From contig CAVVVF010000001.1 of assembly GCA_963751665.1 (NCBI GenBank), positions 18,652 through 82,651 on the forward strand: DNA of 64,000 nt. Direction: 5' to 3'. Shown piece by piece: positions 15,048-53,595 of this stretch. This DNA comes from an uncultured Actinomycetes bacterium (GTDB lineage Bacteria; Actinomycetota; UBA4738; HRBIN12). Each line of letters begins with the position of its first letter. Position 1 is the first letter of the stretch. Under the pieces are notes generated by a model. The model made no database searches. It saw only the letters and a program-made list of their open reading frames with translations, and was not told the DNA's origin. The position numbers and the translations under genes were made by a program.

Positions 15048-18000
15048 ATGGTCTGCCCCGAGTGCGCGACGCCGAACCCGGATGGAGCTCGGTTCTGTCT
15101 GAACTGCGGGGTTCCTCTCGAGCGGTCCTCGTCGACCGGGCGTGCGACGCGACTCGAGTCCTACCTCCCGAGCGGGATGCTTGCCAAGCTCGAGGCGGCG
15201 CGGGCGGGTCGATCGATGCAGGGCGAGCGCCGGATCGTGACGATGCTCTTCTGCGACGTTGTGGGCTCGACGGCGATGGCCGAGCGGCTCGATCCCGAGG
15301 AGTGGACCGAGATCATGAACGGGGCATTCGAGAACCTCATCGCCCCGGTCTATCGCTACGAGGGCACGTTGGCCCGGCTGATGGGCGATGCGATCTTCGC
15401 GTTCTTCGGCGCGCCGATCGCCCATGAGGACGACCCGCAGCGGGCGGTCGCCGCCGGCCTGGAGATCGTCGAGGGGATCCGCGCCTACCGCGAGAGGATG
15501 AAGGGCGATCGCGATCTGGACTTGAACGTCCGCGTGGGCATCAACACGGGCCCCGTCGTGGTCGGCGAGGTCGGCTCGGATCTTCGACTCGAGTACACGG
15601 CCATGGGCGACGCGGTGAACGTCGCGGCTCGAATGGAGCAGACGGCCGAGCCCGGCACGGTGCAGATCACGGCAGAGACGCACCGCCTCGTCGCTCCGCT
15701 CTTCGACGTCGAGTCCCGAGGCGCCGTCCAGGTCAAGGGGAAGGCCGAGCCGGTTGCGGCCTATCGGGTCGTCCGAAGGAAGAAGCAGCCTGGACCCACG
15801 CGCGGGTTCCGTGCCGGCGGGGCGCCGCTGGTGGGGCGGGGGCGCGAGATGGCACTGCTCCAGCGTGCCGTCGACGAGGTGATCGACGGACGAGGCCAGA
15901 TCGTCTCGCTGATCGGAGAGGCCGGTCTGGGGAAGAGCCGGTTGATCGAGGAGACCCGTGAGGTCTGGGCGACACGTCGGGCAGAGGGGGACTACGAGGT
16001 CGGGGACATCCGACGGATCTGGGAAGTCTGGCAGTGCGTGTCCTACGACACGACACGCCCCTACGCGCAATACCGGCGCATGCTGGCCAAGATCGCTGGG
16101 ATCGACGACACCGACCCACCGGACGTCGTCCGGGAGAAGCTGGCACGGACCATCGATTTTTCTGCGGATTGGGTGGAACCCCACATGCGGGTCTGGCGCT
16201 CGCTCTTCGGTATTCCGGAGCCCGGAGAAGTACCACTGGAAGGCGAGGCATTCAGGCGCGCGATCACGGAGCTGGTCGTTTCATCCACCCGCCACGTCGG
16301 CTCCGAACCCCGGCTACTGGTGTTCGAGGACTTGCACTGGTGCGACGAAGCTTCCATGGACCTGTTGATCGAGACGGCCAAGGTCGTCGATGACCTACCG
16401 AGCCTGTTCCTGTTCGCCTTCCGTCCCGACCGGCAGGCGCCGTCCTGGCGTCTGAAACAGTGGCTCGAGGTCGAGTATCCGCACCGCTCCACGGAGATCG
16501 TGCTCACTCCTCTCTCGGATCAGGAGAGCAGCGATTTGATCGACGAACTGCTGCCGGAAGAGGGCAGATCAGACACCATCCGAACCCAGATCCTCGAAAG
16601 GACGGAGGGCAACCCGCTGTTCGTGGAGGAAGTGGCTGCCGCCGTCCTCGAGCAGGGATCCACGGATGAGGGCATCGCGGTTCCGACCACCCTGCAGGCG
16701 CTGATTACCGCGCGCCTCGACACGCTCGACGACGAGGCCAGACGTACGCTGCAGCTCGCCTCGGTCATAGGGCGCTCGTTCCTCGAACCCGTCCTTGCCG
16801 CCGTCGCAGGCGACGGCACCGACCTCCGAGCGCGACTGAGCACGCTGGAGCGGGTGAGTCTCATCAGCGAGACCGCCCGGATGCCCGAGCGCGAGTACGC
16901 GTTCCACCACAGCCTGACCCAGGAGGCCACGTACGGCACGATCCTGCGGCGAGAGCGGCGCAAGCTCCATCTGCGGGTCGGAGAAGCCTTGGAGCGGCTG
17001 TACGTGAACCGGATCGAGGATTTCGCGCCCCTGCTCGCTCGCCACTTCCAGGAGGCCGGCGACGACGACCGCACGCTCCGCTACGCCACCGTCGCGGGCG
17101 ATCACGCGGCCAAGCTCTACGCCAATGCCGATGCGGTGACCCACTACACGAATGCGATCGACGCCGCTCGGCGGCTCGAGCGTTCGGAGGAGCAGCTCCG
17201 GCTGTTCCCGAGCCGCGGCAGGGCGTTCGAGCTCGCGGCGCGCTACGACGACGCGGTTGCCAACGACGAGTCGTGGCGCGCGCTCGCGGAGGAGGGGGGC
17301 GATCGGTCAGCCGTGCTCGGCGCCGAAATGGCGCTCGCCACCCTGTTCTCGACGCCGACCCCGAAGTTCGATGCCGAGCGCGGTCGAGCGCTCTCGGAAC
17401 GCACGCTGGACCTGGCGCGCGAGCTCGGCGATCGCGTGGCCGAGTCCAAGGCTCTGTGGAACTTGATGATCCTGAACGTGTACGGCGGCGGGGACCTCCG
17501 CGAGGCCGTGGACGCGGGAGAGCGGTCGCTGGCCATCGCGCGTGAGCTGGATGCGCGGGAGCAGATGGCCTTCACGCTGAACGACCTGTGGCGTCCGAAC
17601 GTCGCGATCGGTGGGTTGGGAGCATCACGCGCGAGCCTGGAGGAGGCGCGGACGCTCTGGCGCGAGCTCGGCAACCTCCCGATGCTGAGTGAGAACCTTG
17701 CCAGCTCTGCCTCGGTTGCCCGCCTCGTCGGGAACGACCGGGATGCGCTCGCCCTCGCCGAGGAGGCCCACGGGATCGCCAAGGACATCGGCAACCTGTG
17801 GGGCCAGGCGTACAGCCTGATGAACATCTACGGCATCTACCTGGATCGCGGCGAGCTAGGAAGGGCCATGGAAACGATGCGGGAATGCATCGCGATCGCC
17901 GAGCCCGCCGGGTTCATCCCTCCACAGGCGACCACCCGCGCCGACCTCGCGTCCGTCCACGCGTACCTCGGCGATCTCGAGGGGGCCCAGGAGCTCGTGC

Positions 18001-18590
18001 GGGTCGCCCTCGACGTGGCGAGGCAGAAGCAGCCGATCGCGCTCCCGTGGGTTATGGGCGCGAAGTCGGAGCTCCACCTTCTGGCAGGCGAGCTCGACGA
18101 GGCCGAGGCCGCCGTCGGTGGGAGCCAGGTCGAGCTGCTCCCGGAGCCGCTCCAGTCCACAGCGTCCATCCACGTGGCGCTCGTCCGCGGCCGCATCGCC
18201 TTGGCGAGAGGCGACCAGGCCCGAGCCGTCGAGATCGCCGACACGATCCTCGAGCGTTTGCGCCGGCTCGAGGTCCGGCAGTTCGCCGCAGACGTCCTCT
18301 TGCTCAAGGGAAGCTCACTCGCCTCGGCTGGAAAGACCGATGAGGCCGAGCGCGTGCTCGGGGAGGCGCGGGCGGAGGCGGAGAGGCTCGAGTGCCGGCG
18401 AATCTTGTGGGAGGTGCTTTGGGCGCTGAGCGAGATCTTGGACGTACAGGGGAACGCGGAGGACGCCAAAGAGCTCCGGGCCGAAGCTCGGCGCCTCGTT
18501 GAGCGGATAGCGGAAAGTGTCGATGAGGAGGAGCTCCGGTTGGGCTTCCTGGAACGGCCCGACGTGATGGTCGTGCTTACCGACCATTGA
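15048..18590 (+). CDS. class III adenylate/guanylate cyclase with N-terminal zinc ribbon, AAA/STAND NTPase and C-terminal TPR repeats
   Basis: CPECATPNPDGARFCLNCG; cyclase core FCDVVGSTAMAERL...GDAIFAFFGAP...RVGINTGPVVVGEVGS...AMGDAVNVAARME; Walker A GEAGLGKSRL; long TPR-like C-terminus; intact 1180 aa. Confidence 0.8.
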   Translation: MVCPECATPNPDGARFCLNCGVPLERSSSTGRATRLESYLPSGMLAKLEAARAGRSMQGERRIVTMLFCDVVGSTAMAERLDPEEWTEIMNGAFENLIAPVYRYEGTLARLMGDAIFAFFGAPIAHEDDPQRAVAAGLEIVEGIRAYRERMKGDRDLDLNVRVGINTGPVVVGEVGSDLRLEYTAMGDAVNVAARMEQTAEPGTVQITAETHRLVAPLFDVESRGAVQVKGKAEPVAAYRVVRRKKQPGPTRGFRAGGAPLVGRGREMALLQRAVDEVIDGRGQIVSLIGEAGLGKSRLIEETREVWATRRAEGDYEVGDIRRIWEVWQCVSYDTTRPYAQYRRMLAKIAGIDDTDPPDVVREKLARTIDFSADWVEPHMRVWRSLFGIPEPGEVPLEGEAFRRAITELVVSSTRHVGSEPRLLVFEDLHWCDEASMDLLIETAKVVDDLPSLFLFAFRPDRQAPSWRLKQWLEVEYPHRSTEIVLTPLSDQESSDLIDELLPEEGRSDTIRTQILERTEGNPLFVEEVAAAVLEQGSTDEGIAVPTTLQALITARLDTLDDEARRTLQLASVIGRSFLEPVLAAVAGDGTDLRARLSTLERVSLISETARMPEREYAFHHSLTQEATYGTILRRERRKLHLRVGEALERLYVNRIEDFAPLLARHFQEAGDDDRTLRYATVAGDHAAKLYANADAVTHYTNAIDAARRLERSEEQLRLFPSRGRAFELAARYDDAVANDESWRALAEEGGDRSAVLGAEMALATLFSTPTPKFDAERGRALSERTLDLARELGDRVAESKALWNLMILNVYGGGDLREAVDAGERSLAIARELDAREQMAFTLNDLWRPNVAIGGLGASRASLEEARTLWRELGNLPMLSENLASSASVARLVGNDRDALALAEEAHGIAKDIGNLWGQAYSLMNIYGIYLDRGELGRAMETMRECIAIAEPAGFIPPQATTRADLASVHAYLGDLEGAQELVRVALDVARQKQPIALPWVMGAKSELHLLAGELDEAEAAVGGSQVELLPEPLQSTASIHVALVRGRIALARGDQARAVEIADTILERLRRLEVRQFAADVLLLKGSSLASAGKTDEAERVLGEARAEAERLECRRILWEVLWALSEILDVQGNAEDAKELRAEARRLVERIAESVDEEELRLGFLERPDVMVVLTDH

Positions 18591-18670
18591 CATCGGCTGG
18601 TCTCTTTCTCTTCCGCGCAGAGCGCGCGGGACGACTATGTTTGGTCCGACTGACGGGTGGGAGCCGCGGC

Positions 18671-21532
18671 ATGGGGATCGCTTCACGAACGCTGCGCATC
18701 AGGACAGGCGAGGGTCGCATTGCGGCGCTGCTTGTCAGTCTGACGTTCGCGTCTATGGCCGCCCTTACGGTGGGCGAGAGCGGGATCGACGCGTTGTTCT
18801 TCGACCGCGTCGGCACGGACGCGCTTCCGCTCATGTACCTCCTGCAGGGAGGCGCGACGTTCGTTGCGATGCTGGTGCTCACAGGCATCCTCGGTAGGTT
18901 TGGCCCGCGACGGGCGTACGTCTTGGCACCCCTCGCACTTGGCGTGCTCGTGGTGGCCGAGCGCAGCGTGCTCGTCACCGACGTCCGGTGGATCTACCCG
19001 GTCCTGTGGGTAACGGTCGCTCTCGCTTGGCTCATCCAGGGCATCTTCCTGTGGGGAACGGCTGGGGCCGTCGTCGACACTCGGCAGGCCAAGCGCCTGT
19101 TCCCGATCTTCGCTGCCGGGGGAATCCTCGGCTCAGTCGTCGGCGGCTTGATCACGCGGCCCATTGCCTCGACGATCGGAGCGGAGAACCTCCTTCTCGT
19201 CTGGGCGGGTGTGCTCGGCGGCGTATTCGTCTTGTGTCGAGCGGCGCTCGGTCCTGCCTCGGGCGGCGTACGCCGACGGGTCGCGCGGAAGCGCGTGTCG
19301 GCGCTGAAAGACATTGCCCAAGGCCTCGCGTACGTTCGTCGATCGAGGCTGCTCATGTGGATGACGGCCGCAGCGGTCCTTTTCTCCGTCCTCTACTACT
19401 CGCTGTACCTGCCCTACGCGCGGGCCGCGAGTGATCGCTTCCCGGACGCAGACAAGCTCGCCGGCTTCTTCGGGCTGTTCTGGGCGGGCGTGACCGGTGT
19501 CGCGTTCCTGGTCTCCATGCTGCTCACGAACCGCCTGTTCGCATGGTTCGGCTTGGCGGCGATGGTCATCGTGCTCCCGATGCTGTACACGGGGGCGTTC
19601 GGCATCCTCCTCCTGGGATCGGGGTTCCTGACACTGGTCGCGGTACGGTTCGCGATCGGTGTGTGGCTCCAGGGTGTCGCATCGCCGGGTTGGGAGACGC
19701 TCGTCAACGTCGTCCCGGAGACCAGACGCGACCAGACGCGGGCGTTCCTCAACGGCGGGCCGGCGCAGATAGGGACGGCGATCGCAGGCGTCGTGGCGCT
19801 CGTCGGTCAGGACGTCTTGACGCAGCGCCAGCTCGCTGCTATCGGTCTTGTGGCGGCAGCGTTGACGGTCGTCGCGGCGTTCGGCATCCGCCGATCCTAC
19901 GCGGACGCGCTTGCAGACGCCCTCCGCGCCGGCTGGCCGCAGGTGTTTGACCGCGCCTTCGTCCGCGGGATCCCGATCCCGGTCGCCGTCGATGCAGAAG
20001 CGGCACGGGTACTCGCCGACTTGGTGCGATCGCCGGACGTGCGCGTCCGTCGGCTCGCGTTCCAGATGGTCGCTGACCTGCCGCCGGACACACGACCGAT
20101 CGAGTTTGCGGAGGGGCTCGACGACGCCGACCCGATCGTTCGGCTCGCCGCCGTCCGGGCCCTCGACGTTGCGACCATCTCTTGGCGCGATGCGCTGTTG
20201 GCGAGGATCGACGACCCTGACACTGCGGTCGCCGCAGCGGCAGCCGCGCGCGCGATCGGCCTCGTCGCGGACCCAAGACCGGCGGCTCGACTGCGCGAGC
20301 TCCTCGCCGCCGCCGACACCGAGACTCGTCGCGCGGCGCTCGAGCAGCTCGCGCTCGCGCCGCGCGATCAAGCGGCGGCGTTCGCCTCGGAGCTGGTCGC
20401 CGATGCGTCCGGCGACGTCCGTGCCCTGGCGCTCGAGAGACTGGCCGATGCCGCCCCCGCCGAAGCCGTAGAGCCTGCGCTCGCCGGGATGGGGGACCCG
20501 GACCCCGCGGTCCGGATGGCGGCGGGGCGGGCCCTCGGCATGGCGGACGGCCGAGCTCTTGACCACGTCTTGGCAGCACTCGACGATCCACAAACGGCCG
20601 GTGCCGCAATCGAGGCGGTTCGCCGTTTGGAACTCGACGGCAGGGGAGATCGGGTCCGAGAATTCGTCCGTTCGACGGCCGCGCGCGCCATGCGAGATCG
20701 GGAACTGGTCGCCGCGATCCCTCCCGACGGGGAAGAGGTCTCGCTCCTGCGCGATGCGATCCTCGATCGGGGACGACGCGTAGCCCTCTCCGCCCTCTGG
20801 GCGGCGACGATGGTCGCCCACCGGCGCGGCCTGATGGTGGAGGCGATCGAGAACCTTGACAGCAAGTCCGGTCAACTCGCGAACGCGCTCGAGACGCTCG
20901 AGGCCGCGGGGGACCCACTCGTACATCCACTCCTCGGCCTGTGGGAGCCCGCTGGAGCAATGACCCACGGCGCCGGCGAGGACTGGCTGGCCCGGGCCCT
21001 CGCGGACGGTGACGGATTCATCGGTCAATGCGCGGAGCTCGTGCGCGCTCGAAGAGAAGGAGAATCGATGACTGGGTCGACGATGACGCTCTCGGTGATC
21101 GAACGGGTGCTCTTCCTCCGGCAGGTTTCGCTGTTTGTCGATCTCCCTCCGGCCGATCTTGAGCGCGTGGCCTCGATCGCCGATGAGCTCAGCTATTCCG
21201 ACGGGGACGTGATCGCAGCGGAGGGCGAGTTCGGCCAGGAGCTCCACATCGTGGTCGATGGGACATTGCTGGTGACCCAGGACCGCGACGGATCGGAACA
21301 GGAGCTGGCGCGCCGAACCACCGGAGACGTTGTGGGTGAGATGTCCCTCATCACCCAGACGCCGCGGATCGCCTCGCTCGTGGCCGACGGCGATGTACGC
21401 ACGATCCGGATCGGCCATCGAGAGTTCGAGAGCATGCTTCGCGAGCGCCCTGGGGTCGGCCTCGCCGTGATGCGTGTGCTCGCCAATCGCCTCGCAGAGG
21501 TGTCGCCCCGTCCGGAACCGGGCAGGGTATGA
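18671..21532 (+). CDS. TLC (ATP/ADP translocase-like nucleotide transporter family) membrane domain fused to HEAT/PBS-lyase repeats and a C-terminal cyclic-nucleotide-binding domain
   Basis: About 12 TM helices with NTT-like motif QAKRLFPIFAAGGILGSVVGG; repeated DPD/DPDPAVRMAAGRALG HEAT-like units; cNMP fold LFLRQVSLFVDLPPADLERVA...GEMSLIT...RTIRIGHREFESMLRE. Frame is open from a TTG at 18587 overlapping the upstream stop; first ATG at 18671. Confidence 0.7.
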   Translation: MGIASRTLRIRTGEGRIAALLVSLTFASMAALTVGESGIDALFFDRVGTDALPLMYLLQGGATFVAMLVLTGILGRFGPRRAYVLAPLALGVLVVAERSVLVTDVRWIYPVLWVTVALAWLIQGIFLWGTAGAVVDTRQAKRLFPIFAAGGILGSVVGGLITRPIASTIGAENLLLVWAGVLGGVFVLCRAALGPASGGVRRRVARKRVSALKDIAQGLAYVRRSRLLMWMTAAAVLFSVLYYSLYLPYARAASDRFPDADKLAGFFGLFWAGVTGVAFLVSMLLTNRLFAWFGLAAMVIVLPMLYTGAFGILLLGSGFLTLVAVRFAIGVWLQGVASPGWETLVNVVPETRRDQTRAFLNGGPAQIGTAIAGVVALVGQDVLTQRQLAAIGLVAAALTVVAAFGIRRSYADALADALRAGWPQVFDRAFVRGIPIPVAVDAEAARVLADLVRSPDVRVRRLAFQMVADLPPDTRPIEFAEGLDDADPIVRLAAVRALDVATISWRDALLARIDDPDTAVAAAAAARAIGLVADPRPAARLRELLAAADTETRRAALEQLALAPRDQAAAFASELVADASGDVRALALERLADAAPAEAVEPALAGMGDPDPAVRMAAGRALGMADGRALDHVLAALDDPQTAGAAIEAVRRLELDGRGDRVREFVRSTAARAMRDRELVAAIPPDGEEVSLLRDAILDRGRRVALSALWAATMVAHRRGLMVEAIENLDSKSGQLANALETLEAAGDPLVHPLLGLWEPAGAMTHGAGEDWLARALADGDGFIGQCAELVRARREGESMTGSTMTLSVIERVLFLRQVSLFVDLPPADLERVASIADELSYSDGDVIAAEGEFGQELHIVVDGTLLVTQDRDGSEQELARRTTGDVVGEMSLITQTPRIASLVADGDVRTIRIGHREFESMLRERPGVGLAVMRVLANRLAEVSPRPEPGRV

Positions 21533-22248: not shown

Positions 22249-24387
22249 TCAGTAGTCCACCCCCTGGACGTAGGTCCGATCCGCGTCGTTCGCCTGTACG
22301 CTGGTCGGGCGCATCATTTCGTTGTCCTCGTGGTCGATGATGTGGCAGTGCCAGACGTAGCCGTGCCCGCCGTCGGGATCGAACGGGTATGACGCATCGG
22401 CGGGATCCGTGTTCGCCGGCAAGTTGGTCGGAGCCCAGCGAACCGCGATCCGCGTCACCTGACCCGGATACATGACTACCGTGTCCTTCCATCCCGCCTC
22501 GTTCGGCTCTGGAGGCTTGGCCGGACCCTTGAGGAACGGCACCACGTCCGGGTTGCCACCCAGCGCCCGAGCGTTCCCCGTGTAGTAGTCGAGGGGCGGC
22601 CCGAACCCGGGCCGGTAGACCCCTCCTTGGAAGGCGGCCGCGTACGTCGTGTCGTACTTCCCGACGTCGAAAGCCTGCCGGTTCATCAGCTGGAACTGCA
22701 CGAGGTGGAGGTGGATCGGGTGAGCGTCGGCGGTGAGGTTGACCACCTCCCAGACCTCGGTCTCGCCCTCTTGCGGCAGCTCCGAGTAGTAAGTGGTGAG
22801 CCCGTCGACCGTGATGGGTGTGAAGTCCGATCGATCGGTGCCCGGCAAGTCGGTGTTATTTACGAGTATCTCGAGCGGTCCACCTTCGTACGTGACGCCG
22901 CCGACCTCCGACGGCTCGCCGATGACTTCGTTCAGCGTCAGCTGACGCGTCTTCTGGACGGCCACGTCCGAGGCCAGCGTCCCCGCGGCCGGGTCGACCA
23001 GCCGCACCATCGGCGTTCGCAAAGGCGTGTGAGTGGCCGGGTCGTAGCTCGTGTCGGGACCGGTCGAGGGAACGACCCGGAACTGCATCACACGACCGGT
23101 GGTGCTCCCTTGGGGAGCCTCGCCCCCGGGGTACGGCGCCTTGGCGATGTTACGAAGGAGCAGCCTGGTCCCCGGTGCCAGTCCGGCGAAGTCGACGATC
23201 ACATCGGCGCGCTCGCCGGGCAGGATCAGCAATCGCTGGAGTGCACCCTTGGGCGCGTTCGGATCGATCTTCACGGGCCGGTCGAGGTAGCCGCCGTCGG
23301 TTCCGATCTGCCATATCGACGGCCCCATCGTCTTGGAAGCAGGGTTCGTCAAGAAGAGCTCGTACCCCCGGGCGTTGGAGCCATCGAGGAATAGGAATCG
23401 GTATCGCTTCGGCTCGACCTCCAGGTACGGCCAGACCTTGCCGTTCACCGCGATCGTGTCGCCGATGAACTCCGGGACCCAGAAAGGGTGCTCCGGGTTG
23501 GGTGTGAACGGTATCCCCGCCGGGAAGAACAGCTGGCCGTCCGTGTCGAACATGCGATCTTGGATGATCAGTGGTATCGGCAGCGGAAGGTTGGCGGGGG
23601 GCGGGTCATCCGGATCGGTGATCAGGTAGCCGCCCGCGAGGCCCGCGTAAACGCTCAGCCGCGTCACGCCCAGCGTGTGGTCGTGGAACCAGATTGGAGC
23701 CGCTTCCTGGACGTTCGGGTAGCGGTAGATGGCGTAGTTCTTGGGCGACGTGCCATCCTCGCTGTAGTAGGCGGGCCCAACGTAGCTCCCGTCGCTCGTG
23801 AACCAGGAGTCCGGTCCTCCGTCGATGCCGGCAGGCACCTCTCCGCCGTGAAGGTGTGGGGTCCCAGGGATGGGCCCTGCGTAGTGGAGAGCGCACGCGC
23901 CCGTCGGCGGGTTCCGCGGCTCAACGCTTTCCGCGCAGGCATTCGCCTCGCCGTTGAGCGGATCGGCCCAGTGCACGGTTTGGTCCGTCGAATCGACCCA
24001 CGCCTTGAGGTGCGTGTGGCTCGTGTCACCGAGATTGTTGACCCACTTGATCTCGGTCGGCGTGCCGCGCTCGGCGACGATCACCGGGCCCAGGTAGGTG
24101 GATCTGGCCGACTGGCCGGGCTGCAGGTACCCCCAGACCCAGGTCTTGGGGGATCCTTTCGGCAGCACCTGCGCCTTGAACTCGGTCATCCGCAACTCGA
24201 TCGGGCTCGCGCCCGCGAGGATGACGTCCAGGCTGGGCAGCGAGTCGACGAACTGTGGGATGGAACTGCCTGCGAGCGGAGTCTGCGCCGCAGCGACAAA
24301 CGACCTCGACCATCCGAGGCGGGGCAGAACCACCAAGCCGGCACCCGCGGCGAGGCCTCCGTTCAGGAACTGTCTCCGAGTAATCAT
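22249..24387 (-). CDS. Tat-secreted multicopper oxidase (bilirubin oxidase/CotA-like)
   Basis: Twin-arginine signal MITRRQFLNGGLAAGAGL; copper ligand motifs incl. C-terminal HCHIIDHEDNEMM; intact 712 aa. Confidence 0.8.
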   Translation of the reverse strand: MITRRQFLNGGLAAGAGLVVLPRLGWSRSFVAAAQTPLAGSSIPQFVDSLPSLDVILAGASPIELRMTEFKAQVLPKGSPKTWVWGYLQPGQSARSTYLGPVIVAERGTPTEIKWVNNLGDTSHTHLKAWVDSTDQTVHWADPLNGEANACAESVEPRNPPTGACALHYAGPIPGTPHLHGGEVPAGIDGGPDSWFTSDGSYVGPAYYSEDGTSPKNYAIYRYPNVQEAAPIWFHDHTLGVTRLSVYAGLAGGYLITDPDDPPPANLPLPIPLIIQDRMFDTDGQLFFPAGIPFTPNPEHPFWVPEFIGDTIAVNGKVWPYLEVEPKRYRFLFLDGSNARGYELFLTNPASKTMGPSIWQIGTDGGYLDRPVKIDPNAPKGALQRLLILPGERADVIVDFAGLAPGTRLLLRNIAKAPYPGGEAPQGSTTGRVMQFRVVPSTGPDTSYDPATHTPLRTPMVRLVDPAAGTLASDVAVQKTRQLTLNEVIGEPSEVGGVTYEGGPLEILVNNTDLPGTDRSDFTPITVDGLTTYYSELPQEGETEVWEVVNLTADAHPIHLHLVQFQLMNRQAFDVGKYDTTYAAAFQGGVYRPGFGPPLDYYTGNARALGGNPDVVPFLKGPAKPPEPNEAGWKDTVVMYPGQVTRIAVRWAPTNLPANTDPADASYPFDPDGGHGYVWHCHIIDHEDNEMMRPTSVQANDADRTYVQGVDY

Positions 24388-25369
24388 GGCGTCCTCCCTC
24401 CCGGCAACCCGAGCCTCGGGCCGGGCCGGAGTCGCCTTCGCGCTATCCCTATCTCCTGTTCACCTCGATTCATACCGGTGCACGGGTGGCTTATCAGGGC
24501 CAGAGGACCTGGAGTCGATGTGCCCATCGGGACCCGGCACGGGGCATCCCGGCCGCCCGCGCTGGCTTCGGCGCCTAGCTCAGCGGCTGGTTTCGCGCGA
24601 CGTCGGCGGGCGTTCTCTTGCGCCAGGGCAGCGCGCCACGACGTCGATGTCGATCGCGGAGCTGAGCAGAACTCTCACGAGGACAATCACACCGAGGGTG
24701 GTGGCACTCTCTAGCGTCGGCGCCACGCCTGTCGTGCGGACGATGTCGACGCCTGACGCCTGGAAACGCCGCGAAGCACCGACAGGACGTGGGTGCCGAA
24801 ACGAGGTCGCTCCCGCCGATCACCAGCACGAGGACGCCCTTGCGCTCTTCGCCATCGCTTTGGCCTTCAGATCGGATCTCTAGGGCCTGTGACGAACCCT
24901 TTATCATGCCCTCGATTCGATCCGCGTCTCGATGGATCCGGGGAAGCTCGGGCCAGCAAGACCCAGAAAGACCCAGCAATGACAAGGCGACCATCTCAAG
25001 GTGGAGTTTTCGGGGAACCCCGCCAACGCGGCGGCGGGCCTTAGCGTGGCTCCGGTGCTCGTCGGTATGACGGCTGCTGTGGGCGTCGCGATGCTGGTGC
25101 GAGCGGAGCGTCCCCAGGAGTGGCTGCATCTCCTGCCCGGGGTCGTCAAGTCGTCCACTCGCCCCGTTGGTTGGTCCGCAGACGAGAAGGGGTACCAACA
25201 TGCGCGGGCTGCTCGCGTCCTCGTGCCAACGGTGCCAGTCAAAGATTCGTGGACCCCGCAGGCCATGACAAGGCCGGGCAAGCACGCCGGCCACGACCTC
25301 CAACACCGTGGACAGGATCATGGGCAAGGTGCTCACTCCGGCGCGGCGGCAGATGAATACACTCCCGAC

Positions 25370-26578
25370 ATGGGCGGCGATGAGGGGCTGCGTGCCGTTG
25401 AGGCGGAGAACCGGCTGCTCCGCCGGGTGATCGAGACGATCACATCGAATCTCGACCTGGACACCTTGCTCGCCTCCTTGATCGACCTGGTTACCGAGGC
25501 GACCCGGGGCGACGCGTGCTTCCTATTCCTCTGGGACCCCGACGAGGAGCAGCTCGTGCTGCGCGCCGCCTCCCCCGAGTTCGAGGGAGCGGTGGGCTCT
25601 GTCCGCTTGCGTCTGGGCGAAGGCGTTTCCGGCTGGGTCGCCGAGAACCGGGAGGTCGTCGCGATCCCCGAGGACAAGTGGTCCGACCACCGGTACAAGT
25701 ACAACCCGGAGCTTGAGGGCGAACGGTTCACGTCGATGCTGTCGGTGCCGGTGGTCTCGAAGACGGGCGTGCTCCTCGGCGTCTTCAACGTCCACACGCA
25801 TGCCCGCCGGGACTTCAGCGAGCGGGACATCCGGTTCCTCCGGCTTACCGCCTCCCTTGTGGCTGAGTCCATCGAACACGCCCACCTGTTCGGAGCGCTC
25901 GCTGACAAAGAGTCGGCGCTCGAGGCGCTCGTGCGAACCACGATCGAGGCTCAGGAGGAGGAGCGTCGCCGCGTGGCCACCGAGATCCACGACGGCGTGA
26001 CGCAGCAGCTGGTTTCGATCTGGTACCGGCTCCAGGCGTGCGGGAGAACGCTCCGCGTGGATCCGGGCCGCGCCGAGCACGAGCTGGCGACGGCCCGTGA
26101 CCTGGTGGACGGTGCGCTCGAGGAGGCGCGATCCGCGATCTACGACCTGCGGCCCTCGCTCCTGGACGACTTGGGACTCTCCCCCAGCCTGCGAGCCCTC
26201 GCGCTCAGCCAGCTCGAAGGGGAGGCAAAGGTGGATCTGCAGATCGACGACGTGGTGCAGCTCCCGCCTCACCTTGAGGTGGCCCTGTATCGGATCGCCC
26301 AGGAGGCGTTGACCAACGTCCGCAAACACGCCCGGGCATCGCGCGTGAAGATTACCCTCCGAGAAGCCGACGGCTATCTTGAGCTCGAGATCGAGGACGA
26401 CGGCTGTGGGTTCGCGAGCCAGCCCTCGCAGTCGCAGCGCCCACCGACTTCGTTCGGTCTCACCGGTATGGCCGAGCGGGCGTCGCTGATCGGGGGCGAA
26501 CTCAGCCTGCGGAGCGCCCCCCGCCGCGGCACGGTCGTCACTGTTCGCGTCCCGACCCAGGCCGAGGCGCGCACGTGA
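25370..26578 (+). CDS. GAF-domain sensor histidine kinase (HisKA_3 + HATPase_c, NarL-partner type)
   Basis: GAF region then phospho-acceptor ATEIHDGVTQQLVS and ATPase motifs ALTNVRKHARA, DDGCGF, GLTGMAERA. Confidence 0.75.
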   Translation: MGGDEGLRAVEAENRLLRRVIETITSNLDLDTLLASLIDLVTEATRGDACFLFLWDPDEEQLVLRAASPEFEGAVGSVRLRLGEGVSGWVAENREVVAIPEDKWSDHRYKYNPELEGERFTSMLSVPVVSKTGVLLGVFNVHTHARRDFSERDIRFLRLTASLVAESIEHAHLFGALADKESALEALVRTTIEAQEEERRRVATEIHDGVTQQLVSIWYRLQACGRTLRVDPGRAEHELATARDLVDGALEEARSAIYDLRPSLLDDLGLSPSLRALALSQLEGEAKVDLQIDDVVQLPPHLEVALYRIAQEALTNVRKHARASRVKITLREADGYLELEIEDDGCGFASQPSQSQRPPTSFGLTGMAERASLIGGELSLRSAPRRGTVVTVRVPTQAEART

Positions 26579-47870: not shown

Positions 47871-50800
47871 CTACCACGCGGAAGCGCAAGATATGAGCCA
47901 AGCACTCCTGCTCTGTGCGCACCGATCCACGTGAAGGTACTGGCGGCATTCCTCGTCGGTGAGCGATCTCGTGACCTCCCGGGGCGATCTCGAGGAGGTC
48001 GTCGATGTCGAGGGCCCAGATCCGAACACCATCGCACGCGCTCGTGGAGGCGAGCTTCGTACCGTCCGGGCTGAAGGCCACGCTCTGGATACGGCGCATC
48101 CGATGCCCCCGCAGGACCAGCTGCTGCGCGCCGGTGTCCGCCTCGAACAGCCGAACCGTGCCGTCGAGCCCGCGGTGGCGACGCGCGATCCGTCGGGGCT
48201 GAAGGCGACATCGTTGACGCCCCCGAGTTCCCGGCGAGCACCGCCAAGCGCGTTCCGCTCTCCACGTCCCAGATCTCCGCGTGTCCGGCCTGACCGGCCG
48301 TGGCGATACGGGAACCGCTGGGATCGAAGTCCATGCGACGCGTCGCGCTGATCGTGCGGACGATCACGCCCCGCTCCCAGTCCCAGATCTTCAAGCGGTA
48401 TCGGCCTTCGGCGATGCGGGCCGCCGTGGCGACCAGGCGGCCGTCGGGGCTGAACGTGCCGCGAACAGAGACGACCCCTCGTCTGCGCAGGACCCGGATC
48501 ACGCGGCCGGAGCGATCGACGATCTTCGCCTCCCGTCCCAGCTCGCGGTGACCAGATACTCCCCATCCGGACTGAATGCGACCTCGTTGACGTCGAGGCG
48601 GTGCCCGATCTGGAAGAGCTCCTCCCCGGTCGACAAATCCCATACCCTCACCGCTACGTCGCCGCCGCAGCACTCGGGCCGCTCCAGCCGCCGAGCGGCG
48701 ATCGACGCGCCGTCCGGGCTGACGTCGAATGAACCGAAGAACCCAGAAGAAAGTCGAAGTGGCAGGGGTCCGATCGTTCGAAGGACCCGCCCCGTCTGCA
48801 GGTCCCAGATCGGCACCGCATGGTCCGTCCACGCTGGTCGCCACGACGCGCCGTCCGTCCGGCATGAACTCCGCGGGATGCGCCGGCGGCGGGAAGGTTC
48901 GCCCACTCGGCGTCGCCGTTCGGCCCCAGGTCCCAGATCTTCACGGCGGTGATCCCCGCGTCACCGGCCATCACCCGGGTCCCATCGGGCGAGAACGCCA
49001 CTCCCACGATCCCGCTCCTCGTCTCTTGTGCCGACAGCGACCAGAGCTCCCGGACACCTCCGTCCCGATCCCCACACCTTCGCGGTGCCGTCGATACCGC
49101 CCGTGACCAGGCGAGAGGAATCCGGACTCCAGGCGGCGCTCAGGACGAACCCGCTGTGGCCGAAGGTGAGCCGGAGCCTTCCCGTCCCCGCATCCCAGAC
49201 TCCCGTGCCGTCCTCGCTCTCGCGGCGATGTATCGGCCATCCGGGCTCCAGGACACGCCCCCGTGAAGCACGACGACGCTGCAACAATTGGGTTCCGCTC
49301 AGTTGAACGCTTCCTCGCCGGTCCTCGACGATCGAACACGGCGCCGTCTTCGCCACGAGAGGACGACCACGGCGAGGCGCTTCCCGTCAGGACTGAGGGC
49401 GGTGTCGATCGGGCCGTCGCAAGCAAGAGTCCAGACCACCCGGCCCGTGGACAGGTCCAGGACCCGGACGACGCCCCCGAAGTCGTCGTGCCAGGCAGCG
49501 GCGACGAGCGAACCGTCGGCGCTGAACGAAGGGCCGAAGCACCGCGCCCTCCCCCGACAGCGCTCGCAGAGGAGTCGCCGGTCGAGGGATCCCACACCTT
49601 CAACGTCCCGTCGTCGCCGGTGGAGGCGAGCATGGAGCCGTCCGGAGCTGAACGCGACGTCGTTGACATCGCCATCGTGTCCCTCGGAACGAGAGGACGC
49701 TCTCCCCCGTCTCGCCGTCCCTGATGTCGATGATCCCCGAGTCCTCGCCCCTCGGTCACGAAGACGCCCGTCGGGCTCCAGGCGAGGAGCCCGCCCACCC
49801 CGGGCACCTCCATCACGAGCCGGGATGCCACGACGGCCCGGTGCAGCGCCTCCTCGGCCTCCGGCAGCACGGATCCGTCGACCGATCGGGTGAGCTCGAC
49901 GGCCTCGATCGCGAGCAGGACGCTGAGCTCGGGGTCGGCCTCGAGGTTCGCGACCGCGGCGGCGGCAAGCTCCCTCGCCGTCGCGACCCTCGCCTCGCGC
50001 CCGCTCGCTCGCTCTGGTTGGTCGCGACGATGGTGAGCGATCCGGCGACCAGAGCCGCGACCGCGAAGACGGCAACGAGGCCGCGCAGCCGGCGTGCGGA
50101 TCGCCGCTCGATCCGCGCCTCGTGCTCGCGCCGCCGCTCCTCCTCCTCCCGCTCCCGGTCGCGCTGATCGACGCTCGCCTTCAGGTACGCGCGCTCGGGC
50201 CGCCCGATCGCGAGGTCCGTGGTCGCGGCCCAGGCCTCGAGCTGCTCGAGTCGGGCACCCCGCAGGAGGAAGCTCGGATCGCCGTCGGAGCCCCGCCACT
50301 CGGCGGCCGCCTGGGCCAGCCCCCGTTCCTGACGGAGGTCCTCGCGCGCGTCGTCGATCCAGGTGCGCAGCCGCCCCCACGCGCCGAGCAGCGCCTCGTG
50401 GGCGATCTCGACCGTCGGCTCCCGGGTGGAGGGCTCCCGATCGAAGGTCAGGAGCCGGTGGCGTCCGAAGGTGTCCAGGACGCGTCGATCGCTTCCGGTT
50501 CCACGTCGATGTCGTCCAGCTCGCTCCTCGCGACGCGCCGCCGCGTGTCCTGCCTGCCCTCCCCGAGGGTGACCAACCGCAGGAACACCTGCTTGATCGC
50601 CCGTCGCCCCTGCGGTCGGTCGCCTCGTAGATGCGCTCGGCTCGCGCGGACAGGGCCCCGGCGACCCCGCCGATCTCCCGGTAGGCGGCGAGGGTCAGCC
50701 GATCCTCGTCCCGCCGTTCGAAGAGCTCCGTGAGCGCGTACTGCAGGAGCGGGAGCGCGCCGGGCTGATGGGCGACGTCGGCGATCATCTCCGCCACCAG

Positions 50801-53595
50801 CCCGGGCTCGGGCCGGACGCCGACCCGTTCGGCCGGGCCTCGGATCGCCTGCTCGAGCTCGTCGGGCATGAGCGGGGGAACCGCCTCGGTCCGTTCGGCG
50901 AGCAGCTCGCCGAACCGGGGGTAGAGGAGCGGGCGGTCGTAGAAGTCGGCCCGGAGCGTCACGATCACCGGAGCCGGCTCTCGGGGTCGGCGGTCGCGAC
51001 GCGAAGCGACTCCAGGAACAGCTCGCGCTCGCGTTCGTCGGTGGTGAGCGTGAAGACCTCCTCGAACTGGTCGACAACGAGCACGACCTCCGACTCGCCG
51101 GCCGCGACGAGATCCACGGCCTCGAGCAGCCCCCGGGATCCTGAATCGAGCAGGTCGTGCAGCCGGGGCACCGGACGCACCGCGATCCGAAGCAGCGCCG
51201 CCTCGAGCTCCTCGATGGGGTGCGACCCGGGGAACATCTCGGCGATGAAGGCGATCCTCCGGCCTCCCCAGGGCCCCGTCCCGGATCGCCGGGACCAGGC
51301 CCGCGCGGACCACCGAGGACTTCCGCCCCCGCTCGGGCCGACGACGGCGAGGAACCTCGACCCGGGCCCGCGCCTCCTCAGCCTGGCGACGAGGCGCTGG
51401 GTGAGCTCCCCCCGCCCGAAGAAGTCGCGGGCGTCGGCCTCGGTGAACGGCCGGAGGCCCTTGTACGGGTTCCGTTCGTCGGTCCGTCGGGGGCGGCGAT
51501 CGCGTAGGTTCGAGGGCCGTGCGGGCGGCCACGGCGAACGCGTCCGCCTCCGGGTGCATCCGTCCCGACTCGACCCGCTCGACGAGCTCCGCGAAGGACG
51601 GCTTCGTCCGGCAGCAGGCCCGTGGCGAGCCGGCGAGCTCCCGGACGTCCTCCGGGGGTCCGGCGCCGCGCCGACCCCGATCTGGAAGTCCCCGAGGTAG
51701 GCGTTCCCCTCGGCGTCGAACAAGACGTTGGACGATCCATGCTCCCGTGCGCCATCCCCTGCCGGTGCGCGAACGCGAGCGCGGAGGAGATCTGCTCGAC
51801 GAGGCGGATGGCTCGGTCCCGCTGGAGCGACTCCCCGCGCTCCTCGAGGGCCCGCAGGCTGCCCCCGCGCAGGTACCGGGAGACGATGTAGGCGCGGCCG
51901 GGCTCTCGCCAGTAGTCGTAGATCGGGACGATGTGCGGATGCTCCAGGGCCGCGACGGCCTGGGCCTCCGCCTCGAAACGCCCCACGAAGGCCGGGTCGG
52001 TGGCGACGTGCTCGTGGAACACCTTGACGGCCACGTCGCGCTCGACGTGGGGTTGGATGGCCCGGAAGACGGCGCCGTCGGCCCGTCGTCGATCTTCTCC
52101 AGGAGCCGGTAGCCGCGGAGGGGCTCTCCCCGCAGATCGAGTCCGGGGTCTTGCTTCAGGACCCGCTCGTGGAGCCTCACGAGCTCGGGCGAGGGGTCGA
52201 TCCCGAGCTCGTCGGCCAGGATCTCCCTCGCCCGCTGGTAGGCGCCCAGCGCCTCGGCCTGACGCCCCTCGCGGTAGAGGGCCAGCATCGAGCAGGCCCC
52301 ACAGGCTCTCCCGCCAGGGGTGGCGCGCGAGCAGGGTCTCCAGCTCCCCGATCGCCCGGGCCTGGGCACCGCTCGCCAGGAGCCCCTCGATCCTGGCTTC
52401 CTGCGCCTCGAGCCGAAGCTCGTCGAGCCGGGCGGCCTCGGCGACCAGCGAGGGCTGGTCGGCGAGGTCGGCGAGCGCCGGGCCGCGCCACAGCGCCAAG
52501 GCATCCTCGAGCGTGGCGACCGCGATGTTCGGATCGACGGGGAGGGCCTTCTTCGCGTCCCTCATGAGCGCGTCGAACCGTGCCGCGTCCAACTCGGAGG
52601 GGTCGAGCCAGGCGGTAGCCGGGTGCGTGGCTCTGGATCCGGTCGTGGCCGAGGGCCTTCCGGAGGTGCGAGACGTAGGTCTGGATGATGTTCCGGGCTT
52701 TCTCGGGCGGTTCTTCGCCCCAGACCTCGTCGATCAGCGTCTCGGCGGGCACGAGCTCGTTCGCGCGGATGAGCAGGTGGGCGAGGACCGCGCGCTGCTT
52801 CGGCCCGCCGAGGGGGATCGGCCCGCTCCCCGCGTCGACCTCGAGCGGTCCGAGGACGCGGAACTGCAGCCTCCCCCCGTACACGCGCCGCGCCGGCTGC
52901 CTGGGCAGGAGCGCTCGCATCTGCTCGGCGACGTCGCTCCCCTCCGAAGCGATCGCCAGGACGTGGACGGGATCGGAGAGCCCCTTGAGATGCAGCTCCC
53001 CGCGATCGACGTAGGTGATGCCATCGAGCGCGCGAGCGAGGTGAACGACGCTCTGACTGCACAGGATCTCGCCGGGGCCGGCCTGCCCGCACAACCGCGC
53101 CGCGAGGTTCAGGGCCCCACCCCGGTATCCGCCCTCGACCTGAACCGCCTCGCCCGCATCCAGCCCGATCCCCACGGGGAGCGGGAGATCCGGAGTCGCC
53201 AGCGTCTCCTGCAGGAGGCGCGCCTGCAGCTCGACCGCCGTCCTGATCGCCTGACGGGGCGAACCAAAGACGGCGAGGGCCTCATCACCCCGCAGCTCGA
53301 TCACCGAGCCGTCACGAGCCTCTACCTGCTCGCGAACGATGTCGGCGAACCGAGCTGCGAGCTTGGCAGCCGCTTCGTCACCGCGCTCATGGGTGAAGTG
53401 GGTGTATCCGCGAACGTCCGCGATCAGGAACGTCCTGACCTCCTCGGTGCCGGCAGGCGGCGTGTTTCGGCTTTCCTCTCGGACATCGATGGGGCCCGAT
53501 CCCTGGGGAGCGTGCTCCATCCCCCTCATGCGGCCGAGTATCGAGCCTTGGATTCTCGAGCGCCAGGCCGCCGTCTCGTCCTGTGTGTCGCTCAC
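47871..53595 (-). pseudogene. giant multidomain signalling gene: class III adenylate cyclase - SARP (OmpR-type winged helix + BTAD) - protein-kinase-like segment - NB-ARC/AAA - WD40 repeats; many frameshifts
   Basis: Cyclase core (FLIADVRGYTHFTH...GDEALAVFGSP...GIGLDAGEAV) and SARP DNA-binding (LQFRVLGPLEVD...PKQRAVLAHLLIRANELVPAETLIDEVWGE) in 52177-53595 ORF; BTAD + kinase-like (VAVKVF...HPHIVPIYDYW...YIVSRYLRGGSL) in 51378-52592; Walker/NB-ARC-like LAVVGPSGGGS in 50965-51723; at least 12 WD40 units (VAFSPDG..., ...WD...) scattered over five minus-strand frames between 47871 and 50075; C-terminal LTDEECRQYLHVD. Confidence 0.6.

Follow-up and report, generated by a model that had tools for sequence, protein, structure and literature searches.

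The window analysed here is the whole 64,000 nucleotide stretch of contig CAVVVF010000001.1, which comes from an uncultured soil bacterium of the Actinomycetes. Two long open reading frames (ORFs) on the same strand fill its positions 15048-21532, a region with a G+C content of 67-68%. [quoted passage not shown] A sequence-only reading of this stretch had proposed such a pair, and both ORFs as well as all domains named for them were confirmed by Pfam and an AlphaFold2 (AF2) model. The two genes are:

15048..18590, plus strand: gene A, an ORF of 1180 amino acids (aa) with an ATG start; zinc ribbon, class III cyclase, AAA_16 STAND NTPase and TPR; putative cNMP producer
18671..21532, plus strand: gene B, a membrane protein of 953 aa with NTT, HEAT and cNBD parts, delimited by its homologues (945-955 aa), Pfam and the AF2 model; putative cNMP receptor and transporter

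Comparison with related genomes revealed that a cyclase gene adjoins B almost throughout a clade of Actinomycetota and that A-type and B-type proteins also occur as natural fusions.

Cyclase genes next to gene B and natural fusions

The neighbourhood of B homologues was scanned with one genome per species, which resulted in 79 loci, nearly all from metagenome-assembled genomes of Actinomycetota. The B proteins encoded there are 43-77% identical to the B protein of the window. For the adjacency count we restricted the set to the 71 loci with at least 900 nt of upstream DNA. A class III cyclase gene is located at most 500 nt from B in 67 of these 71 species-level loci, and in 56 of the 67 it directly precedes B on the same strand. 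The background in the same loci, counted more than 3 kb away from B, is 0.35 cyclase genes per 10 kb. Unbiased clustering of the flanking ORFs identified the cyclases as the sole widely conserved neighbour (72 of 79 loci). Apart from them, conserved neighbours (a phosphodiesterase or a gene of nucleotide metabolism, for instance) were not found at these loci; with antisense shadow ORFs set aside, the next real family is present at 13 of the 79 at most. Co-occurrence of the pair in other genomes, suggested as a check by the sequence-only reading, is thus favourable within the clade of B.

Three cyclase architectures partner B. S1 proteins are approximately 275 aa long and consist of a zinc-ribbon-like N-terminus with four cysteines (CKLC...CGRC) and the cyclase domain; S2 proteins of approximately 400 aa carry MerR, a weak Ad_Cy_reg match and the cyclase domain; the third architecture is the A type. 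At most loci the adjacent cyclase is S1 or S2, and both are commoner partners than A. From the S1 or S2 stop codon to the start of B the median distance is about 10 nt; at three loci the genes overlap by 4 nt. Tight coupling of cyclase and B is therefore genuine in the relatives, but not in the window. A small cyclase gene between A and B or nearby was sought in the window and not found, and the window has only one other cyclase-like region, 31 kb from A and B. In the lineage of the window the STAND cyclase is the sole cyclase adjoining B.

S1, the commonest partner of B, directly precedes the B homologue at L004, L012, L018-L020, L029 and about 40 other loci (for example L019:9163-9996). It retains the metal-binding Asp residues as well as Lys, Thr and Asn, and His replaces the transition-state Arg (NIAAHLASQA).

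Orthologues of the A type (48-93% identity) are encoded within 10 kb of B at 17 of the 79 loci, mostly directly adjoining. Some lie upstream and are separated from B by S1 or S2; others follow B directly after about 66 nt, or are oriented divergently (gap about 107 nt) or convergently (48-73 nt). Proximity of the two genes therefore survives rearrangement. The order seen in the window, A directly ahead of B and no small cyclase, recurs in L081 (B 88% identical), L082 (B 99% identical) and L083 (A 84% identical).

A search of 1.84 billion representative proteins identified natural fusions of B and A. In two of them, P0145 (2129 aa) and P0163 (2154 aa), one ORF encodes the whole series TLC-HEAT-cNBD-cyclase-AAA_16-TPR, and both were verified on their contigs. 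Altogether, five distinct clusters at 90% were found (P0145, P0163 and three more), which originate from JGI, ENA and Logan assemblies. The fusion halves are only 36-41% identical to B and A, thus the association of the two proteins spans deep divergence. The zinc ribbon of A is missing from the fusions. These fusions are the strongest evidence for a link between A-type cyclases and B. The comparative linkage of A and B, fusions included, is strong, and the idea of the sequence-only reading that a predicted cNMP synthase and an NTT-like protein with a cNBD form a functional pair is well supported by the fusions and by the adjacency at 67 of 71 loci.

Gene boundaries and domains of the two proteins

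The longest ORF for B spans positions 18587-21532 on the plus strand and opens with TTG. In CCATTGACA this TTG (18587-18589) overlies TGA 18588-18590, the stop codon of A, from which translational coupling of the two genes had been deduced. The sequence does contain this overlap, yet B does not begin at the TTG. The homologues of B, more than 100 in number, measure 945-955 aa; their alignments start at residue 1 of the product of ATG 18671, and the N-terminus (MG[IFL]ASRxLRI) is conserved. Gene callers picked the equivalent of this ATG in contigs with 99% and 88% identical B. L081 and L083, relatives with 88% identity, have an in-frame stop 24 codons ahead of the ATG and no start codon in the interval; A terminates there at another stop, 103 nt ahead of B. 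Homologue lengths, the conserved N-terminus, the conserved Shine-Dalgarno motif with its ATG and the lack of an upstream start in L081 and L083 rule out TTG 18587 as the start codon. Since B starts at ATG 18671, behind a GGGAG of its own, the overlap is coincidental and the real spacer between the genes is 80 nt long; coupling through the overlap fails. The features of this junction are:

18587..18590, plus strand: TTG/TGA overlap; stop of A and not the start of B; the overlap is not kept in L081 and L083
18591..18670, plus strand: A-B spacer of 80 nt; Shine-Dalgarno-like GGGAG at 18659-18663; GGGAG and ATG are kept in four related contigs

B is predicted to be translated from its own ribosome-binding site. 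A terminator-like site was looked for between A and B and none was found. Because the genes are on the same strand, 80 nt apart and terminator-free in between, they are probably co-transcribed. A regulatory RNA or attenuator in the spacer was considered and rejected, the fold being no better than that of shuffled sequences (z = -0.6).

Gene A encodes the following domains:

15054..15119, plus strand: zinc ribbon (residues 3-24); Zn_Ribbon_1 at residues 3-21, 28.1 bits (cut-off 25)
15234..15749, plus strand: cyclase homology domain (residues 63-234); Guanylate_cyc, 2e-28
15825..16397, plus strand: AAA_16 STAND NTPase domain (residues 260-450); AAA_16, 8e-19
17373..18470, plus strand: TPR/MalT-like sensor region (residues 776-1141); TPR_12, 3.7e-14, and TPR_MalT, 1.6e-12

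The ribbon cysteines C3, C6, C17 and C20 are invariant in 13 orthologues of A, and we therefore place the start of A at ATG 15048. In the public gene call for L082, whose B is 99% identical, A begins at Met44 (L082:4184-7597, 1137 aa); this is an error of the source annotation that cuts off the conserved zinc ribbon.

The best solved relatives of the cyclase domain are CyaB of P. aeruginosa (3r5g) and Cya2 of Synechocystis (2w01). All 13 orthologues retain the two metal-binding Asp (D70, D114) as well as the Asn and Arg of the transition state (N191, R195), and these residues align with those of CyaB, which suggests that A is a catalytically equipped class III cyclase. The Lys that canonically specifies adenine, paired with Asp or Thr, is not found; its position is occupied by an invariant Arg, R110. 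The respective motif reads ARLMGD in A, DKFVGD in CyaB and DEFMGD in Cya2, thus Lys in adenylyl cyclases, Glu in Cya2 and Arg in A. Thr184 of A is retained in most orthologues.

The Walker A motif GEAGLGKS (G293, G295, K296) and the Walker B motif VFEDLHWCD (E427, D428) of A are invariant. Together with the C-terminal repeat sensor they mark A as a STAND NTPase, and both AAA_16 and TPR_MalT match. A LuxR/GerE helix-turn-helix (HTH) was not detected in A: no HTH family matched at E <= 0.01 in the Pfam scan.

Gene B encodes an NTT domain, HEAT repeats and a cNBD, in this order in one polypeptide:

18713..19927, plus strand: 12-helix NTT/TLC-like membrane domain (residues 15-419); TLC, structure-profile match, Foldseek and AF2
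19994..21070, plus strand: HEAT solenoid of about ten helix pairs (residues 442-800); four stretches of HEAT_2, and AF2
21113..21499, plus strand: cNBD (residues 815-943); cNMP_binding (PF00027), 6e-18, at residues 840-925; phosphate-binding cassette GEMSLITQTPRIAS at approximately 21335-21376

With the full-length protein the TLC family (PF03219) scores 19.2 bits, which is below the gathering score of 21; the membrane domain alone passes marginally with 22.2 bits, and all 16 of 16 homologues match (best 6e-10). The MFS_1 match is weaker than that of TLC and below the MFS_1 cut-off. A profile of the membrane domain gave only two significant matches among solved structures, and both are NTTs (9j3j, 3e-6; 9j3n, 1.4e-4). 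In Foldseek the top structures are 9j3n and 9j3l with TM-scores of 0.67-0.69, narrowly above generic MFS transporters. At the sequence level, QAKRLFPIFAAGGILG of B aligns with EAKKFYPLFGLGANV of Arabidopsis NTT1, and the motif WG.A....AK..FP.FG is common to B, Arabidopsis NTT1 and Chlamydia NTT1. The sequence-only reading had allowed for a generic MFS protein unrelated to TLC; the TLC score and the matches to 9j3j and 9j3n show affinity to NTTs. The membrane domain of B belongs to the NTTs as a distant member; it is no unrelated MFS protein, although NTTs themselves have the MFS fold. About 100 of its positions are invariant across the homologues. The AF2 model of B has a mean predicted local distance difference test score (pLDDT) of 72.7 and contains 12 membrane helices, the first six with high values and residues 285-340 with lower ones.

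The HEAT solenoid is the best-modelled part of B (pLDDT mostly 80-94). AF2 places 21 helices in residues 442-796, which fits about ten HEAT pairs, and the HEAT profile matches alphaRep HEAT proteins at 1e-44. In the cNBD, the cassette GEMSLITQTPRIAS aligns with cassettes of PKA regulatory subunits such as GELALINEEPRAAN and agrees with the pattern G-E-x-[AS]-L ... R-x-A. The 15 homologues compared share G889, E890, R899 and A901 without exception, so that the cassette, whose alignment the sequence-only reading had named as a check, is intact. The residue following the cassette Arg is Ile, which is diagnostic of neither cAMP nor cGMP.

A putative cyclic-nucleotide signalling module

On balance we lean towards the view that A and B together make up a cyclic-nucleotide signalling module of two genes, as judged from domains and gene neighbourhoods. 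A would be a cytosolic sensor of the STAND type, in which a ligand bound to the TPR region and an NTP on AAA_16 would drive oligomerisation. Oligomerisation would bring together two cyclase domains and thereby allow synthesis of a 3',5'-cyclic nucleotide. This activation step is proposed by analogy with the mechanisms of MalT-type STAND proteins and of dimeric class III cyclases. The cyclic nucleotide would then bind to the C-terminal cNBD of B, the cassette being intact, and the HEAT solenoid might relay the conformational change to the 12-helix NTT-like domain and alter transport. A nucleotide is the most likely guess for the cargo, since the only homologues of B with known substrates are, to our knowledge, nucleotide transporters. 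As other cyclases with different input domains serve B in the wider clade, B seems to be an output shared by several cyclase inputs.

Several observations weigh against such a module. In a reciprocal scan that started from an A profile, B was nearby for only about nine of 80 metagenomic relatives, and a large group of A relatives with 59-70% identity has no B even when flanks of 10 kb are included. L001 and L080, which represent the closest genome relatives (77% identity), are cyclase-free within 500 nt of B; they have only a weak cyclase-like match, located about 1.5 kb downstream of B on the opposite strand. Outside the high-G+C clade the linkage is lost: no cyclase was found within 6 kb of the homologues from Anaerolineales (Chloroflexota; four of four loci) or within 6 kb at the P0150 locus; the cNBD cassette of these B homologues is intact nonetheless. 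Further, the invariant Arg at the Lys position means that the product of A cannot be assigned from sequence, and the cNBD region of the AF2 model (pLDDT 36-66) is too low in confidence for docking geometry.

Two generalisations had to be given up. The reciprocal scan rejects A as a dedicated partner of B, a role that the sequence-only reading might be taken to imply: small cyclases are the usual partners and most A relatives are not near B. Likewise, the four Anaerolineales loci and P0150 reject a cyclase link that is general across phyla. The B members of Chloroflexota and Actinomycetota are 28-31% identical over the full length. In two remote high-G+C members of the B family (31-33% identity) a cyclase adjoins B.

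Near cyclase-STAND genes of other lineages that are 40-47% identical to A we observed a cNBD-histidine kinase of about 464 aa, encoded 1.5-2.3 kb downstream (L132:19359-20756, L137:9043-10437, L144:12560-13951, L150:15245-16639, L158:11305-12303). Pairing of such cyclases with a cNBD effector therefore recurs, the effector differing.

A further-reaching version of the module is possible, though we put it forward only tentatively. Here, the cyclases would be docked on or fused to the HEAT scaffold, forming a membrane 'signalosome' in which locally produced cNMP gates nucleotide flux, and B would be the first ligand-gated NTT. In a bolder form of this proposal the NTT domain would export the cyclic nucleotide itself, with the cNBD as product sensor. 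If true, free-living soil Actinomycetota would gain dedicated control of nucleotide uptake or of extracellular cNMP release.

Three other explanations were weighed. The one that survives best, although we regard it as unlikely, is that A came to lie near B by local history: S1 and S2 would be the dedicated partners, the S2 gene that separates A from B in sister lineages would have been lost here, and A would feed a general cNMP pool that has other targets. The order A-S2-B does exist in L002, L003, L077, L084-L087 and L093 and the order A-S1-B in L017 and L054, and the predominance of S1 and S2 next to B and the many A relatives without B nearby fit this explanation as well. It is at odds with the B-A fusions, which join exactly these two architectures and do not involve a small cyclase, and with the downstream, divergent and convergent layouts, in which A abuts B without S1 or S2 at gaps of 48-109 nt. 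Moreover, A would remain a cNMP source for B regardless.

We give somewhat less weight still to a reversed flow of information, or to B as a scaffold; here the NTT-like domain would act as receptor or transceptor, the HEAT repeats would dock and control the cyclase, and the cNBD would serve product feedback; B might then not transport at all. HEAT repeats serve as scaffolds for protein interactions, a sensor domain of its own is not evident in S1, and the cyclase comes straight after the cNBD in the fusions. In addition, the zinc ribbon of A is lost exactly where A is covalently joined to B, and in the AF2 model the invariant charged residues of the membrane part are mostly located at helix ends or in loops. 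However, the membrane domain has kept its full 12-helix transporter fold, the signature motif of NTTs and approximately 100 invariant positions, and zinc-ribbon cyclase-STAND proteins are common without B.

The third explanation is abortive infection of the Pycsar kind, in which the STAND/TPR cyclase would sense phage and the cNMP would trigger the membrane effector to kill or starve the cell, for example by nucleotide leakage. Pycsar systems share the two-gene logic of A and B, a class III-like cyclase and a cNBD effector that is often membrane-spanning, and STAND-TPR proteins are common phage sensors. With PADLOC, the cyclase domain of A matches PycC models up to 4e-24 and the cNBD of B matches the cNBD part of PycTIR, but these matches reflect generic domain homology, because the general cyclase model of Pfam scores higher. 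We consider a Pycsar function very improbable, since B and its cyclase are conserved at 67 of 71 species-level loci and not scattered, the neighbours (sugar ABC transporter, multicopper oxidase, two-component system) are of the housekeeping kind and include no defence genes, and a large 12-helix transporter with a HEAT solenoid is unlike the small transmembrane or TIR effectors. Membership was therefore rejected: the adjacency of cyclase and cNBD effector is there, the sporadic, island-like spread with a small killing effector is not.

Relation to known proteins and surroundings of the locus

The most familiar NTT transporters are the 'energy parasitism' proteins found in Chlamydia, Rickettsia, microsporidia and plastids. 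The canonical NTT/Tlc ATP/ADP translocases (Arabidopsis NTT1, 9j3j/9j3l; Chlamydia pneumoniae NTT1, 9j3n) share the 12-helix MFS-type fold and the signature motif with B. They are, however, only 13-14% identical to B, with similarity limited to the central helices, and have neither HEAT repeats nor a cNBD. A cytosolic C-terminal cNBD on a membrane transport domain, which implies gating by a ligand, is known from the K+ channel MloK1 and from the M. tuberculosis MFS-cNBD proteins Rv3239c and Rv3728. B differs from these in its NTT membrane fold, its long HEAT spacer and its dedicated adjacent cyclase.

The three mycobacterial proteins Rv0386, Rv1358 and Rv2488c, which we take to be cyclase-AAA/STAND-TPR-LuxR proteins, have an N-terminal class III cyclase like A. 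Rv0386 departs from the canonical Lys/Asp substrate pair (PMC3466318, citing Castro et al., 2005). At the substrate position A has Arg with Thr, in contrast to Gln/Asn in Rv0386. Compared with this group A has an additional N-terminal zinc ribbon, lacks the C-terminal LuxR HTH and is linked to a membrane cNBD protein.

The closest precedent for B comes from Major et al. (2017, Genome Biol Evol, PMC5381601), according to whom NTT-HEAT and NTT-HEAT-cNBD fusions are widespread in bacteria and also occur in oomycetes. These proteins have the same domain order as B and are uncharacterised proteins of free-living bacteria. The authors give their function as unknown and speculate that cAMP from an adenylate cyclase might tune ATP uptake; the data set contains a single NTT sequence from Actinobacteria (PMC5381601). 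The statement of the sequence-only reading that such a module has no described function is thus true, but overstated, as the architecture and the idea of tuning by cAMP were already published in 2017 (PMC5381601). Later papers that use the term NTT-HEAT-cNBD did not add functional data. A term search of PMC5381601 gave no mention of a cyclase neighbourhood or fusion, and in the literature searched we found no mention of the conserved cyclase linkage, the three partner architectures or the B-A fusions. What the B clade of Actinomycetota adds to Major et al. (2017) is the near-universal cyclase adjacency and the fusion of B with a cyclase-STAND protein; the architecture of B itself is published, while the cyclase partnership in Actinomycetota and the fusions are unreported in the literature searched.

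Why thousands of free-living bacteria have NTT-HEAT-cNBD proteins has been an open question since 2017, and it is now directly testable. The conserved cyclase and the fusions turn the speculation about control by cAMP into an inexpensive two-gene system, with a ligand-binding domain and with point mutants at R899 (cNBD) and R110 (cyclase). Transport gated by cNMP, if true, would be a new mode of regulation for the NTT family. It would also be a new class of output for bacterial cNMP signalling, in a phylum that is rich in cyclases and has few known effectors. Which nucleotide the large family of zinc-ribbon cyclase-STAND proteins makes is a further question, raised by their invariant Arg at the position that specifies the purine.

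Upstream of the A-B pair the window contains an operon for a sugar-type ABC transporter. On the 3' side B is followed by a divergent multicopper oxidase gene (22249-24387, minus strand) and then, at 24983-26578 on the plus strand, by a gene for a GAF-HisKA_3 sensor kinase. The kinase gene of L082 is succeeded by that of a GerE response regulator, and in L080 a GAF-HisKA_3-receiver-GerE hybrid is also encoded near B. The second cyclase-type signalling locus of the window, located 31 kb from A and B, spans 48971-53595 on the minus strand. ORF 52177-53595 has a weak Guanylate_cyc match and Trans_reg_C, and ORF 48971-52504 contains BTAD, nSTAND1 and WD40. These ORFs, which are in different frames, share about 330 nt and may represent one frameshifted gene for a cyclase-SARP-STAND-WD40 protein.

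Among the more distant homologues of B, the Anaerolineales loci L165-L168 have a divergent YwiC-family gene and cytochrome b genes nearby in four of four cases and a Rieske gene in three of four; a peptidyl-prolyl isomerase gene is located directly 3' of the B homologue in three of four. Close homologues with 60-66% identity were found on contigs assigned to Thermoanaerobaculia, Planctomycetaceae, Dormiibacterota and Velamenicoccus (L009, L050, L068, L072, L074). These out-of-phylum homologues may be mis-binned actinobacterial contigs or the result of recent horizontal transfer. Three metagenome-assembled genomes contain two B paralogues each, on separate contigs (L010/L026, L053/L063 and L016/L064), thus some genomes carry more than one copy of the module.

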